Shown in pieces: positions 1 through 7,789 of a stretch of DNA of 22,332 nt. This DNA is from a bacterium (GTDB lineage: Bacteria > J088 > JAWLBW01), in assembly GCA_041690355.1 (NCBI GenBank), contig JAWLHK010000018.1, positions 62,001-84,332 on the forward strand, in the 5' to 3' direction. The stretch's first letter is position 1. Each line of letters begins with the position of its first letter. The notes under the pieces are model-generated. The model ran no database searches, was not told the DNA's origin, and worked only from the letters and a program-made list of their open reading frames with translations. Position numbers and translations under genes: made by a program.

Positions 1-343
1 TAGCATCGACAATTTGCGCCCAGTTCGAGGTGAGAGCGATGACTATGTCATGGTGGACTAGCGGGTCAATGATGCCGAAAGTGCGGTCAGTTAGTCTTGT
101 CTTAGGAAAATGAATCGTTGCACACTCTGTGCGCTCTGGTTTGTATTTCCCATTCTCTTTAACGATAAAGTAAGGCCGTCCAGTTTGAGGGTGCTTCACA
201 ACCGTAAAACACGGGGGTAGGACATAGGACTCCGGGAAATAGCCATTCCTTAGAAGCCAGTTTTGAAGAGGCCGTTCTTCGAGGGCAAGTGCTAGCTCCC
301 GAGTTTGCTCATGATACTGGCGAAGGCGATTGATTGGATCCAT
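1..343 (-). CDS. N-terminal 114 aa of a probable Abi/UG-clade (defence-associated) reverse transcriptase; runs off the window edge
   Basis: Not in the ORF track. My translation from the ATG at 343 is open to the edge: MDPINRLRQYHEQTRELALALEERPLQNWLLRNGYFPESYVLPPCFTVVKHPQTGRPYFIVKENGKYKPERTECATIHFPKTRLTDRTFGIIDPLVHHDIVIALTSNWAQIVDA. LLxxGYFPxxxxLPPxF followed by FPK....R.FGIIDP resembles the N-terminal and RT-1 region of Abi/UG RTs. An SD-like GAGGA overlaps the upstream TGA. The catalytic YxDD is outside the window. Confidence 0.68.
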   Translation of the reverse strand, partial: MDPINRLRQYHEQTRELALALEERPLQNWLLRNGYFPESYVLPPCFTVVKHPQTGRPYFIVKENGKYKPERTECATIHFPKTRLTDRTFGIIDPLVHHDIVIALTSNWAQIVDA

Positions 344-353
344 CCGGACTTCC

Positions 354-1205
354 TCACCCCTTCTTTTGAAGAGCAGTTAACAGTGCACCGGCCACAATAC
401 CCATGACCTGGACAGCGGAACGCGCTTCTTCCGTGGAAACTCCTGAAACCCAAGGCCGACCGTGACCAGTTCCTTCTTTGTTGCGTAATGCGTTCACCGC
501 ACAGCCCATGTCATAAAGGGCGCGCTGGAAACGCTGTATCGCTGGCATCCTGGCCGGTTCTTGCCCAGCAGGTGCCTCAAACCCTACGGCTACGAATGCT
601 TGCCCTAACAATGTGGGAAAATTGGCGTGAGTTTGATAACTGCCGAAGCGTTCGCAGATCACATGAGCTGCTGTCGCTTCGAGAAGGTCTTTCCCTGTAC
701 CAAGCAACAAAGCAGCGTCTTCGCTGCCGCGCCGCGCTCGCCTAACATAGGCTTCCAAAGCGCGACTAAGGTCAATGCCAGAAAGTGTATCGAGGGAAAG
801 CGGGCTGAGCGTGCCGTCACGTCCCAATAAGTAGCCTTCTGCCTCAAAAGCCGCAATGGCATCTGTTACGGTATGCTCCCCGACAAAATTCGGGGAGTCC
901 TTTCGAAAGCCTCCTTTTGCTCGGATAACAGAAAGAAGTGCAGCAACGAATATCTCGCCTTTGACAGGCGCCTTATCGATGGCGTCCGATAGTATTGCTC
1001 GGACCCGCTTTGCTTTACCGACAACCTGGCCCTGAGCCTTTGGGTCCGCTGGAGTCAGACCTGCGCGATGTACTTGAAAATCAATGTCGGAGTGCGAGGG
1101 CTCACGGTGTCTATCTGACTGCGCATCGTTTACCAGGTTAGCGACGGCAACGATAATCGTGTCGGAGAGTGGGGCTCGAGGCCTCTTATCTGGGGGTAGA
1201 GTCAC
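354..1205 (-). CDS. Abortive infection family protein with C-terminal Abi_C (HEPN-like) domain
   Basis: 283-aa ORF with GTG start. The C-terminal half has the Abi_C pattern: GKDLLEATAAHV, FPTLLGQAF, and VNALRNKEGTGHGR (RNxxGxGHG, an Rx6H HEPN-type motif). Codon usage is more A/T-rich than in the core genes. Confidence 0.82.
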   Translation of the reverse strand: MTLPPDKRPRAPLSDTIIVAVANLVNDAQSDRHREPSHSDIDFQVHRAGLTPADPKAQGQVVGKAKRVRAILSDAIDKAPVKGEIFVAALLSVIRAKGGFRKDSPNFVGEHTVTDAIAAFEAEGYLLGRDGTLSPLSLDTLSGIDLSRALEAYVRRARRGSEDAALLLGTGKDLLEATAAHVICERFGSYQTHANFPTLLGQAFVAVGFEAPAGQEPARMPAIQRFQRALYDMGCAVNALRNKEGTGHGRPWVSGVSTEEARSAVQVMGIVAGALLTALQKKG

Positions 1206-1212
1206 AAAGCTA

Positions 1213-1241
1213 AGGGTAGCAGGAGGAGCCCCTTCGGTCTA
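1213..1241 (-). promoter_or_regulatory. Putative sigma70 promoter of the Abi_C-RT unit (leaderless-type)
   Basis: Minus strand reads TAGACC-N17-TACCCT with an extended -10 TG, 7 nt upstream of the GTG at 1205; no SD. Confidence 0.5.
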
Positions 1242-1479
1242 ACATCCATTGACCGGCCCCTCGCCGCCTTCCAACCCGGCGGGCGCCAGTCGAACGGTCG
1301 ACAGCGTTTGTCTCTCCCCCGGCAGGCAGGGCGAATTGGTACGCGACGGGCAGGATGCGATACGGCTTTCGTGCCAACACTATACCGAGCGACCGCTCTG
1401 GTAAGCAACCCAGCGATAGGGAGCCCACGCGGGGCTGGGGAAGGGGAACACTGTGACCGCGCGCCGCGCGGGCCGAGAC

Positions 1480-1812
1480 TCAACCGATGTCCTCAAGGTC
1501 GAGCGCAATCGTAAGGGCCCGGTCCAGCTCCTCGAGTTTCAGGGTTCCCAGGGACCCCACGAAATCGGTGAGCACTTCCTTGCGAAGCGACACCAAAGCG
1601 TCGCAGTGGATGCTGCTGTCGTGCTTGAGCCCTTCCGGGGCGCCGACGGGGACTTCGGTTTCGAGCCCATGATAGGCCGTGTAGACCGGTGCGCAGACCG
1701 CGGTCGAGAAACGGGAATCGAGAAGAACCTGCCGGCTGACGATCACGAAGACACGGGTCCGCTTCGGGTCGCCCGACGGGTGGCGCACCCGATACAGCTC
1801 GCCGCGCCTCAC
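1480..1812 (-). CDS. mazF: Type II toxin, PemK/MazF family endoribonuclease
   Basis: 110 aa. MRRGELYRV...[14 protein letters not shown]...[22 protein letters not shown]...[11 protein letters not shown] is a typical PemK-fold pattern. GTG start overlaps the antitoxin stop (GTGA). Confidence 0.9.
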
Positions 1813-2039
1813 TCGGCGTCCTGAAACGCGAGCACGTCTTCGACCTCTGCATTCAAGGCGTCAGCCAGCCGGTCGAGGCGTTTGCGTTCGCGCGCCTCAC
1901 GCGCGGCTTTTTCGTGCCGGACCACGTAGGCGGCGACCGCCTCTTCGATGAGCTCGGACCGGGACCGCTCGGCGTAGCCGCCGCGATCGAGCGCTTTCAG
2001 CAGGTCATCGTCGAGTGTGATGGATATCTTCCGCTTCAT
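1809..2039 (-). CDS. Ribbon-helix-helix (CopG/MazE-like) antitoxin
   Basis: 76 aa. [15 protein letters not shown]...[10 protein letters not shown] is an RHH signature; acidic C-terminus; 4-bp overlap with the toxin gene. Confidence 0.88.
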
Positions 2040-5290: not shown

Positions 5291-7789
5291 CTACCGCCCC
5301 CGCGGCTTCGGCGGCTCGGCCGTGAGCGGATCTTCGGGCCAGCTGTGCCGGGGATAGCGCCGCCCGAGCTCCTTCCGCAAAGCCGGATAGGCCCGCGCCC
5401 AGAACCCCGCCAGATCGGTCGTGACCTGCACGGCGCGCTGGTTCGGCGCGAGCAGGTGCAGCACGAGGGGAACACGGCCCCGGCCGAGCACCGGCGTTGC
5501 CTTCATGCCGAAGAAGTCCTGCAGGCGGCTCTCGGCCCAGGGCGGCCGTCCCGGTTCATAGTGGATCCGGATCCGGCGCCCGCCCGGAAGGCGCAGCTGA
5601 TCGGGGAATTCCTCGAGGATGCGCCGCTGCTCGGCCGTCAGCTGTGCCGTCCACGTGCCCAGCGGGTCGGCGTCCCGGATTTCCGCGAACGACGTGCGCC
5701 CGTGGGCCAGGGCGCGCAGCAGATCCGCTTCGATGGCCTCGCCGGTCGCGGGGAGGCCGAGCTCGGGAAACGCCTCGGCGGCCACGCGCACCCGCTCCCG
5801 CCACTGCGTGACCGAGTCCACATCGAGAAACGCGGCGAGTCCGGCGGCGGCCGCCTTCTCGGCCAATAGCGCCTGGGCCGCTTCAGAGGCGGTGCCGGCC
5901 GCGTGGGGATCTACCTTCGACTCGTCGAGCACGAGCCGATCGATCCGCAGCTGCGAAACGACTTCGACGCGCTTCGCGGACTCGAGCCAGCGCGCCTCCA
6001 CCTGTTCCACTAGCGGACTCGGGTCCATGTCGAGCAGCCAGTCGGGATCCATGGCGGCCACGAGGCGCAGCCGCAGGTCACCTTTCGTGCCGGCCTGGGC
6101 GCGCTCTTCGACGTCGACGGCGACGACCCATTCGGTTCCGCTCGGCAGATGGGGATCGAGCAGGCGCGCGGTTCCGCCGGCGGCGAGCAGGACTTCGGCG
6201 CCCGCCCCCGAACGCGCGCGGCTCAGGTGGCCGGCCACTTCGCGCACCTTGCCGATGCGGTCAGGGAACCCGGCCAGCACGGCGCGGCGCACCGCCGACT
6301 CGACCTCCGTGGGGGAAAGTGAGGAACGCTTCCGGGCGGAATCGGGCATGCGCTCGAGAAACTGCTGTCGCACGCGCGCAAGCGCCGGCTCCTCGCGCGG
6401 AAAGCGGGCGTCGAGGAGTCCGGCCACTTCATTGTCGGGCGCCTGGCGCGCTTCGGAGATCCACGCCGCGACGGTCGCCGCCTCGGCTCCCACCTTCCGC
6501 GCGACCCCTTCTTCGAGCAGGCGGGCAATCCGCGGATGCGCCGGGTACTGCACCATCCGCTTCCCGAGCGGCGTGATGGTTCCCGCGTCCGTCAGCGCGC
6601 CGAGCTGCACGAGCAGTGTCCGGGCCCGCGCAAGGGACGCTTCGGGCGGCGGCGTGAACCAGGGGAACGAGTCCACGTCGGTCGCCCCAAGTGCGGCGAG
6701 CTCGAGCAGGGTTCCGGCCAGATCGAGTCGTTCGATCTCGGGTTTCTCGAAGGCCGGCCGCGCCGCATGATCGCCGCTGCCGTACAGGCGCACGCAGACT
6801 CCCGGTGCGGTTCTGCCGGCACGCCCCGCCCGCTGGGTGGCAGAGGCCTGACTGATCCGCTGCAGGCGCAGCGTGGGCATCCCCGTCCACGGCTGGATCG
6901 AGGGGATTCGAGCGACGCCGCCGTCGAGCACGGCCGTCACGCCGTCGATCGTGATCGATGTTTCGGCCACGTTGGTCGCGAGCACGACCTTGGGCCGCCG
7001 TCCCGGCCGCACGGCGCGCTCCTGCTCTTCGCGCGAGAGATCCGCATAGAGCGGAAGGATGTCGTGCGCTCCGCCGAATCGCGCGGCAAGACGGTCGGCC
7101 GTCCGGCGGATCTCGCCGACGCCGGGCAGAAAGGCGAGCACGTCGCCGCGGTGACCGAGCCGCTCCAGCCGCTCCAAGCCGGCGAGCATGCGATCTTCCA
7201 TCGGCAGATCGTGGGGCAGATCGAGATACTCGATGTCGACAGGGAATCGGCGTCCTTCCGAGACCAGGTGGGGCGCGCCGTCGAGCCACTGCGCGATGGC
7301 GGCGCCGTCGAGGGTCGCCGACATGACGAGCAGGCGCAGCTCGGGCCGCGACGTCTGCTGCAGCCGTCGGAGGAGCGCCAGGGCGACATCCCCTTGCAGG
7401 TGGCGTTCGTGGAATTCGTCGAGGATGACCAGGCCGACGCCGCGCAGCTCGGGATCGCGCAGCAGGCGGCGCAGGAACATGCCTTCCGTGTAGAAGCGCA
7501 GGCGCGTTTCGGGTCCCCCCACGTTCTCGAAGCGGAAGTGGTAGCCGACGGTTCTGCCGATGGGCTCGCCCATTTCTTCGGCGATACGATAGGCGGCCAT
7601 GCGCGCGGCGAGCCGGCGCGGTTCGAGCACGAGAATCTCGCGTCCGCCCGGAAACGATTCCGCCAGCAGGGCCGCGGGCACGCGCGTCGTCTTGCCGGCC
7701 CCCGGCGCAGCTTCGAGCACGAGCGCATTTCCGCGCTTGAGTGCCGCGGCAATCTCGGGAAGCAGGGGATCGATAGGGAGCGCGTGCAT
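5291..7789 (-). CDS. hrpB: ATP-dependent DEAH-box RNA helicase HrpB
   Basis: 832 aa. APGAGKTT, LEPRRLAAR, DEFHER, MSATLD, LATNVAETSITI, QRAGRAGR, and HrpB C-terminus LLAPNQRAVQVTTDLAGFW...RYPRHSWPEDP. Confidence 0.96.
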   Translation of the reverse strand: MHALPIDPLLPEIAAALKRGNALVLEAAPGAGKTTRVPAALLAESFPGGREILVLEPRRLAARMAAYRIAEEMGEPIGRTVGYHFRFENVGGPETRLRFYTEGMFLRRLLRDPELRGVGLVILDEFHERHLQGDVALALLRRLQQTSRPELRLLVMSATLDGAAIAQWLDGAPHLVSEGRRFPVDIEYLDLPHDLPMEDRMLAGLERLERLGHRGDVLAFLPGVGEIRRTADRLAARFGGAHDILPLYADLSREEQERAVRPGRRPKVVLATNVAETSITIDGVTAVLDGGVARIPSIQPWTGMPTLRLQRISQASATQRAGRAGRTAPGVCVRLYGSGDHAARPAFEKPEIERLDLAGTLLELAALGATDVDSFPWFTPPPEASLARARTLLVQLGALTDAGTITPLGKRMVQYPAHPRIARLLEEGVARKVGAEAATVAAWISEARQAPDNEVAGLLDARFPREEPALARVRQQFLERMPDSARKRSSLSPTEVESAVRRAVLAGFPDRIGKVREVAGHLSRARSGAGAEVLLAAGGTARLLDPHLPSGTEWVVAVDVEERAQAGTKGDLRLRLVAAMDPDWLLDMDPSPLVEQVEARWLESAKRVEVVSQLRIDRLVLDESKVDPHAAGTASEAAQALLAEKAAAAGLAAFLDVDSVTQWRERVRVAAEAFPELGLPATGEAIEADLLRALAHGRTSFAEIRDADPLGTWTAQLTAEQRRILEEFPDQLRLPGGRRIRIHYEPGRPPWAESRLQDFFGMKATPVLGRGRVPLVLHLLAPNQRAVQVTTDLAGFWARAYPALRKELGRRYPRHSWPEDPLTAEPPKPRGR

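Follow-up and report, generated by a model that had tools for sequence, protein, structure and literature searches.

A UG14 reverse transcriptase gene 10 bp from an Abi_C-type HEPN gene: two probably autonomous defence modules in a bacterial islet

We analysed a 22,332-nucleotide stretch of bacterial DNA (hereafter the window; positions 62,001 to 84,332 of contig JAWLHK010000018.1 in assembly GCA_041690355.1, or G000:C18:62001-84332, where G000 is the genome and C18 its contig), in which a gene for an Abi_C-domain protein of the HEPN type is followed on the same strand by a gene for a UG14 reverse transcriptase (RT). The first-pass annotation of the window, made from its letters alone, had put the two genes forward as a coupled anti-phage system and had kept as a fallback that they are independent of each other, one defence gene stacked beside another in an island. 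The fallback fits best, because the two families are independent of each other across genomes and move as single genes. A dedicated and conserved two-gene system of an RT plus a HEPN protein is not supported. The reading that we favour, with somewhat better than even confidence, is that the two genes are autonomous single-gene defence modules that were acquired together and are co-transcribed. Our data show which domains the proteins have, that their catalytic motifs are intact, how the genes adjoin, that they share an atypical codon composition and that the two families occur independently; the defence function, co-transcription and each of the biochemical steps discussed below are inferred.

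The Abi_C gene (protein P0122; P-numbers denote proteins and L-numbers surveyed loci) is an open reading frame (ORF) of 283 codons that occupies window positions 354..1205 on the minus strand and starts with GTG. The RT gene (P0001) starts with ATG on the same strand, and its first 114 codons lie at window positions 2..343. When the contig was extended leftward (the extended stretch is L002), the complete gene of 532 codons was found at L002 14745-16343 on the minus strand, reaching left to G000:C18:60745, where PADLOC recognises it as RT_UG14. Around the 10-bp junction between the two genes (window 344..353) the minus strand reads AAGGGGTGAGGAAGTCCGGATGGATCCA, with the Abi_C stop codon at 356-354 and the ATG of the RT at 343-341. 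Within the sequence TGAGGAAGTCCGGATG, a Shine-Dalgarno-like GAGGA overlaps the Abi_C stop codon. Thus, both ORFs, their spacing and the ribosome-binding overlap are as first annotated. A scan for the sigma-70 consensus and for terminators found no promoter-like or terminator-like site in the 10-bp junction. The 274 bp upstream of the Abi_C gene (window 1206..1479, minus strand, GC 0.66) are the only possible site of a promoter serving both genes; the sigma-70 consensus scan recognised no minus-strand promoter there, and the sole minus-strand promoter-like site of the pair falls within the RT ORF. An Rfam search at E<=1 over L002 12500-18500 returned no RNA family, so the locus has no known retron or DRT-type non-coding RNA. 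A search of the flanks for direct or inverted repeats bounding an inserted block gave only short, chance-like matches. For the 2.9-kb unit, no public sequencing run and no RNA data set were listed.

The second ORF is, by its profile matches, a complete UG14 RT of the Class 1 UG/Abi group. The 114-residue fragment inside the window already matched PADLOC RT_UG14 at 9.1e-33 and had no Pfam match. The full 532-residue protein matched RT_UG14 at E 9e-197 (652.7 bits), with residues 7-509 covering profile positions 4-492 of 493, and matched Pfam RVT_1 at 1.7e-10. The RT_UG14 match takes in the C-terminal region, where an alpha-helical repeat (alphaRep) domain would be expected. The earlier call of an RT, made from the fragment, therefore holds for the whole gene, and the RT is of the defence-associated UG/Abi kind. 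Its catalytic motif is FKDD (in the context VRFKDDYR), and both D267 and D268 are invariant in 21 homologues. The next-best PADLOC matches were Drt6 (1.5e-67) and Drt4 (1.1e-57); assignment to DRT4 was ruled out, since the NCBIfam Drt4 model (NF041749) gave 152.5 bits against a cut-off of 450. Among five genomes of the same phylum, too few to be informative, G000 alone carries the RT. Viral contigs contained one UG14 locus (L164), with no Abi_C match, and plasmids contained one distant RT match at 29% identity. Mestre et al. 2022 mention UG14 a single time in their text, as a predicted defence gene from island enrichment, and the passages on it name no partner gene (PMC9226505). Full-text literature searches found no experiment on UG14, so that any phenotype would be new.

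The upstream gene encodes a protein with a Pfam Abi_C domain (PF14355; residues 198-272, E 4.8e-12, 46.2 bits against a gathering cut-off of 24). Its Rx6H HEPN motif, RNKEGTGH, runs from R241 to H248 (window 462..485, minus strand), and R241, N242, G245, G247 and H248 are invariant in a 21-sequence alignment (A2), which agrees with the original description of an Abi_C/HEPN protein carrying an Rx4-6H motif. The protein has more than 2,300 homologues, and identity to the 120 best of them is 59-68% over the full length. The mean column identity across the 21 aligned homologues was 74%, and such conservation argues for selection on function. No PADLOC family matched the protein at E<=1, and no NCBIfam family did.

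The Abi_C protein has an N-terminal helical domain (residues 1-140; window 786-1205, minus strand) and a probable C-terminal HEPN domain (about residues 142-283; window 357-782, minus strand). The AlphaFold model had a predicted local distance difference test (pLDDT) score of 79, and a Foldseek search of the whole model against the PDB gave no match at E<=0.001. When the C-terminal half was aligned with VIA-align, it matched sacsin (3o10, Z 9.2, root-mean-square deviation (rmsd) 3.1 over 116 aligned residues), AF_0298 (2hsb, Z 8.5), a HEPN toxin (7ae2, Z 7.6) and the HEPN domain of AbiA (8oz7, Z 7.2, rmsd 4.2 over 119 residues), all of them weak values, since for helical bundles a Z of less than about 13 counts for little. 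Each of the seven best structural matches was a HEPN domain or a protein related to HEPN.

A separate model of residues 1-140 reached a pLDDT of 90. Its best structural matches were of the death-fold kind, a bacterial CARD (9frr, Z 5.8) and a bacterial death-like domain (8ss1, Z 5.7), followed by many CARD, PYD and DD entries, all with weak scores. A death-like domain joined to a HEPN domain would be an interesting architecture if true, and at these scores it serves as a lead. A protein atlas search with the same domain gave unnamed clusters at 0.90 and a lead to AbiJ_NTD5 at 0.88. The protein does not qualify as AbiJ: the Pfam domains AbiJ_NTD3, AbiJ_NTD4 and AbiJ_NTD5 were absent at E<=0.1, in addition to the missing PADLOC family. 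It resembles AbiJ in that a distinct N-terminal domain precedes the Abi_C/HEPN domain at its C-terminus, whereas the N-terminal domain of the window protein is a different helical fold. One Abi_C relative, P0242 (560 residues, 47% identity), is fused to a UvrD-helicase domain.

The two genes also share a composition that sets them apart from the rest of the contig. The Abi_C gene has a GC content at third codon positions (GC3) of 0.489 and the RT gene one of 0.510, against 0.61-0.90 for 14 other contig genes, so that the A/T-richer codons initially reported for the pair are real. The RT is less informative in this respect: UG14 RT genes lay below their flanks in GC at 66 of 69 loci, and the low GC of the window RT is therefore a habit of its family. 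Genes of the Abi_C family, on the other hand, lay more than 0.05 below flank GC at only one of 41 loci, and the window gene lies about 0.09 below. Since the two genes are alike in GC3 (about 0.5) and Abi_C genes are rarely below flank GC, the pair was probably acquired together as one imported block. In the 4.64-Mb genome there is a single Abi_C match and a single UG14 RT match, and they adjoin each other. This adjacency within the genome exceeds chance.

If the pair were a dedicated system, each gene would be expected to keep the other as a neighbour. For the Abi_C family we scanned metagenomes with alignment A2 and kept 80 loci, 63 of which had at least 600 bp downstream. None of the 80 had a tblastn match to the window RT. 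Its neighbours were of other kinds. A DUF1156 gene lay downstream at 5/80 loci and a Snf2+NOV_C helicase gene directly upstream at 3/80. At L125:1336-8866 and L130:1459-8866 the Abi_C homologue is wedged between a Snf2+NOV_C (HmaA-like) gene and a DUF1156 (HmaB-like) gene, and L115, L151, L113 and L094 show Hma-like embedding as well. The gaps in these Hma-like operons were 0-66 bp, as tight as in the window, and tight spacing is therefore not specific to the RT. Further loci of the family had an HsdM gene, a serine recombinase gene or a transporter gene next door. A search for longer forms of the Abi_C protein returned two proteins, one of them the UvrD-helicase fusion P0242 and neither with an RT, which is weak evidence by nature against an Abi_C-RT fusion.

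For the RT we surveyed one genome per prokaryote species with the RT alignment as query, obtained 125 relatives and kept 80 loci. The window Abi_C protein had a tblastn match in two of these loci, and the family HMM (hidden Markov model) found the same two among 1,274 nearby ORFs. The window's own Abi_C family stands upstream of an RT at a single locus, L011 (5106-7536), as a decayed copy: the protein is 52% identical and carries a TAA stop within the HEPN catalytic motif, and the RT beside it is split into ORFs of 352 and 130 residues. L057 has a different architecture, an AbiJ_NTD3+Abi_C gene upstream of the UG14 RT with a Hypoth_Ymh gene before it. Among the 62 UG14 loci with at least 900 bp of upstream sequence, 29 had no same-strand ORF of at least 80 residues ending within 200 bp. 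Thus, the UG14 RT usually stands alone. A dedicated coupling of Abi_C with the RT is not supported by these two surveys, in which one RT locus of 80, a decayed one, has the same Abi_C family and none of 80 Abi_C loci has the RT.

Comparison of related loci shows what moves. L060 (Aquimarina) and L061 (Galbibacter) have 94.5% DNA identity that is confined to 5980-7533, and the RT ORF itself covers 5989-7533. The Ymh neighbour of L060 is not common to L061, whose RT lies among genes for sugar and polysaccharide synthesis. Likewise, the DNA identity of L079 (4244-5814) with L077 and L080, about 80%, is restricted to the RT gene. In the Abi_C family, DNA identity of 76-90% was limited to the gene plus at most 80 bp in seven pairs of loci. 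Because the identity is bounded by the gene in the loci of both RT and Abi_C, each family moves as a single gene. By such comparisons, the UG14 RT gene seems to move singly, with gene-precise borders and no visible mobility gene. We also observed that UG14 RT genes common to distant genera, at 80-94% DNA identity, cease to be similar within about 10 bp of their start and stop codons.

Several observations weigh against two merely stacked genes, among them the HEPN genes beside UG14 RTs. We scanned 60 further directly adjacent same-strand ORFs against Pfam, which added a Ymh gene 7 bp upstream of the RT at L060, a Ymh gene 19 bp downstream at L045 and a 259-residue Abi_C gene 52 bp downstream at L079. 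Any kind of Abi_C gene thus adjoins the RT at 3/80 loci (two upstream, one downstream), and a co-oriented Abi_C or Hypoth_Ymh gene lies beside it at 5/80 (L011, L057, L060, L045 and L079), with gaps of 7-55 bp. For comparison we scanned 222 further ORFs of 170-480 residues at neighbour positions 1 to 4, with the previously scanned ones excluded. None of them was an Abi_C or Ymh gene; they included one HEPN_AbiU2 (L013) and one sub-threshold Abi_2 match. A Fisher test with 5 of 33 for the size-matched adjacent ORFs and 1 of 228 for the others gave p 1.3e-4. This value overstates the case, since our ORF calls were crude, loci that are related do not count as independent and many of the more remote ORFs belong to no defence island. 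Three changes of state on the RT tree are needed for the window, L011 and L057, and L060, L045 and L079 each stand beside a sister with no detectable HEPN neighbour. The five loci lie in different RT clades, and the adjacency has therefore arisen more than once, perhaps because a partnership between RT and HEPN was selected for. The neighbour counts come from RTs more distant than P0003-P0006, the four closest relatives of the window RT (61-66% identity); as a weak proxy for these four, none of the lengths of their contigs (6264, 20880, 2914 and 65477) occurs among those of the best 120 Abi_C homologues. The first-pass annotation had proposed that its idea would fall if RT homologues never occurred with Abi_C; strictly they do occur together, and a facultative link may exist. 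The HEPN adjacency is recurrent and at the same time young in every RT lineage.

These observations are the substance of a rival explanation that we regard as possible and clearly less likely than stacking, namely that the genes form a facultative two-gene system, a kind of ‘split AbiA’. The UG14 RT would sense infection and make single-stranded DNA (ssDNA), the HEPN protein would be a swappable RNase effector or accessory, either activated by the RT or widening its range, and separate UG14 lineages would have recruited different HEPN genes, either Abi_C or Ymh. The 10-bp same-strand junction with no terminator, the meeting of the genome's sole Abi_C gene with its sole UG14 RT, and the contrast between the five loci with adjacent HEPN-type genes and the lack of any Abi_C or Ymh gene among the 222 other nearby ORFs all speak for this, as does the origin of the adjacency in separate RT clades. 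The shared GC3 suggests that the pair travelled as a unit, and the C-terminal half of the window protein aligns, if weakly, to the AbiA HEPN domain. There are also precedents, in that AbiA is an RT-HEPN fusion, UG22 has a separate HEPN gene and UG19-small has a HEPN-like gene (PMC11077055, PMC9226505). On the other hand, 75 of the 80 UG14 loci have no Pfam-detectable HEPN neighbour, none of the 80 Abi_C loci has this RT, and the RT gene that is 94.5% identical between two genera exists in one of them with no HEPN neighbour. The HEPN-type neighbours belong to several unrelated families and stand on either side of the RT in at least four architectures, and at L011, where alone among the UG14 loci the window's Abi_C family recurs, the motif contains a stop codon and the RT is split. 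The Abi_C family retains its own N-terminal domain in every context, and its longer forms include no RT fusion.

A related proposal, which we consider a little more doubtful again, is that UG14 RTs repeatedly and independently gain a co-oriented gene for a HEPN RNase (Abi_C or Ymh) whose product is an exchangeable effector or extends the range of the RT, again as in a split AbiA, the window pair being one case, and that the HEPN protein may carry a death-fold N-terminus for assembly-dependent activation. The RT belongs to a catalogued group and the Abi_C protein to a catalogued family, and the HEPN adjacency at 5/80 loci alone might grow into something new. That Abi_C is a selfish, toxin-like hitchhiker in expressed defence operons with only a positional link to the RT, or that one of the genes no longer functions in this host, is improbable: the single-gene mobility of the Abi_C family, its presence within Hma-like operons and near type I restriction-modification genes, the decay signalled by the premature motif stop in L011 and the absence of a recognisable promoter upstream of the pair would fit, but both window ORFs are intact with invariant catalytic residues, and the Abi_C family is highly conserved. 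A prediction of the complex between the RT and the Abi_C protein (alignments A1 and A2) scored 0.00 in two runs made without controls, and counts neither way.

We therefore return to two autonomous modules, a reading to which the single-protein nature of characterised close relatives such as DRT4 also leads. In this scheme, two anti-phage genes, each sufficient by itself, would have come in by horizontal transfer as one small cassette under a single promoter, and would not form an obligate two-part system. The product of the first gene would be an RNase of the HEPN type (Abi_C domain, Rx6H), whose conserved N-terminal helical domain may restrain the nuclease or sense infection. Upon activation, the HEPN domains would pair and cut RNA, and growth of the infected cell would stop. 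The second gene product, the UG14 RT, is predicted by homology with AbiK, Abi-P2, AbiA, DRT4 and DRT6 to work as an oligomer that makes protein-primed, template-independent ssDNA, and to abort infection upon a phage cue such as a phage ssDNA-binding (SSB) protein. Protein-primed and template-independent ssDNA synthesis has been described for these five relatives (10.64898/2026.10.21.760695); AbiK, DRT4 and DRT6 are hexamers and AbiA is a dimer (10.64898/2026.10.21.760695; PMC11077055). DRT4 has been described to possess RNase activity of its own and to be triggered by phage SSB proteins (10.64898/2026.10.21.760695).

The pair lies in an islet about 5 kb long, as judged from the housekeeping genes further out on both sides; beyond the islet we found only such genes. 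Upstream of the pair, Pfam identified a MazF/PemK-RHH toxin-antitoxin pair and a HicB gene. The toxin gene (MazF/PemK, 110 residues) overlaps the gene for the RHH/MazE-like antitoxin (76 residues), with the HicB-like antitoxin gene near (window 1480-2039 on the minus strand and 2230-2442 on the plus strand). The GC3 of the MazF gene is 0.793 and that of the RHH gene 0.779, and the MazF, RHH and HicB-like genes together have host-like values of 0.73-0.79, unlike the RT and Abi_C genes. On the other side, 137 bp separate the RT gene from a downstream gene for a PLD-like nuclease-domain protein of 336 residues (L002:13597-14607, that is C18:59597-60607, minus strand); it has weak PADLOC matches to ZacB and DrmC and a GC3 of 0.61. 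We rejected it as a third component, since a homologue was present in 0/80 UG14 loci and 0/80 Abi_C loci. Further out on the right are genes for CMD, HxlR, HrpB, DsbA, an ABC transporter, AspRS and PilMNO, and on the left an encapsulin gene with a cysteine desulfurase gene, and a gene for a large surface protein. The encapsulin is a type 2A shell protein (SrpI-like, with a cNMP-binding domain), followed by the cysteine desulfurase (L002:5549-8535, plus strand), and encapsulin with cysteine desulfurase is a known cargo pairing.

The RT survey also brought up recurrent neighbours other than HEPN genes, of which UvrD helicases are the commonest. A blastp cluster of 693-825 residues occurred near the RT in 10/80 loci, and its three scanned members were UvrD-type helicases; a further UvrD gene was present in L067. 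A cluster of N6_N4 methylases of about 950 residues occurred in 6/80 UG14 loci (two members scanned). In one UG14 subclade (L005, L021, L022, L038, L042 and L016), these genes form a tight row of an N6_N4 DNA methylase (about 950 residues), the RT and a UvrD-type helicase (about 700 residues), with gaps of 34 and 12 bp in L021:3028-9620. This three-gene row recalls the arrangement of a methylase-RT with UvrD that has been reported for UG35, and it may be a distinct three-gene system.

If the window holds two stacked genes, the finding is an ordinary one, and yet it illustrates cleanly that genes may be closely spaced and alike in codon usage without thereby being proved a defence system; single-gene, precise movement has moreover been shown for both the UG14 RTs and the Abi_C family of the window. 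If the occasional adjacency of RT and HEPN is functional, a group whose HEPN partners are modular and optional would join those Class 1 UG/Abi polymerases for which a HEPN link is already known (fused in AbiA, separate in UG22). The suggestion that a defence RT with a stand-alone Abi_C partner may be new was too strong, since RT plus HEPN has been described for UG22, UG19-small, AbiA and type IX retrons (PMC9226505).

Within the UG14 group (PMC9226505; PADLOC model PDLC03751), the window RT is a typical member. It matches the profile over its full length, has an RT domain followed by a C-terminal extension, and has further defence and toxin genes next to it. The RT as such shows no difference from the group, and what distinguishes it is the Abi_C gene 10 bp upstream. 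DRT4 (UG15) and DRT6 (UG12), the next-best profile matches, are single-protein systems that make template-independent ssDNA (10.64898/2026.10.21.760695); the score of the window RT against DRT4 is well below the family cut-off, as given above. For the Abi_C family, the nearest parallel is the hotspot for the insertion of defence genes between hmaA and hmaBC (PMC11232893). Members of the family are inserted between HmaA-like and HmaB-like genes, like other defence genes there, whereas the window gene adjoins an RT with no Hma operon, and the section of that report on the hotspot does not list Abi_C among the genes inserted there (PMC11232893).

Two comparisons bear on the pair as a whole. Lactococcus AbiA consists of an RT, a helical domain and a HEPN domain in one protein (8oz7), and has in common with the window a Class 1 Abi-type polymerase and a HEPN domain fused to or accompanying it (PMC9226505). 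The AbiA HEPN domain has been described as enzymatically inactive, yet required for polymerase activity (PMC11077055), whereas the HEPN protein of the window is encoded by a separate upstream gene, its Rx6H motif is intact and it has an N-terminal domain of its own, and the association of RT with HEPN is rare among UG14 loci. UG22 with its separate HEPN gene, UG19-small with a distant HEPN-like gene and the type IX retrons with HEPN share with the window a defence RT and a stand-alone HEPN partner gene (PMC9226505). In those systems, as described there, the partnership is characteristic of the group, while among UG14 loci it occurs in only 5/80 and involves unrelated HEPN families.

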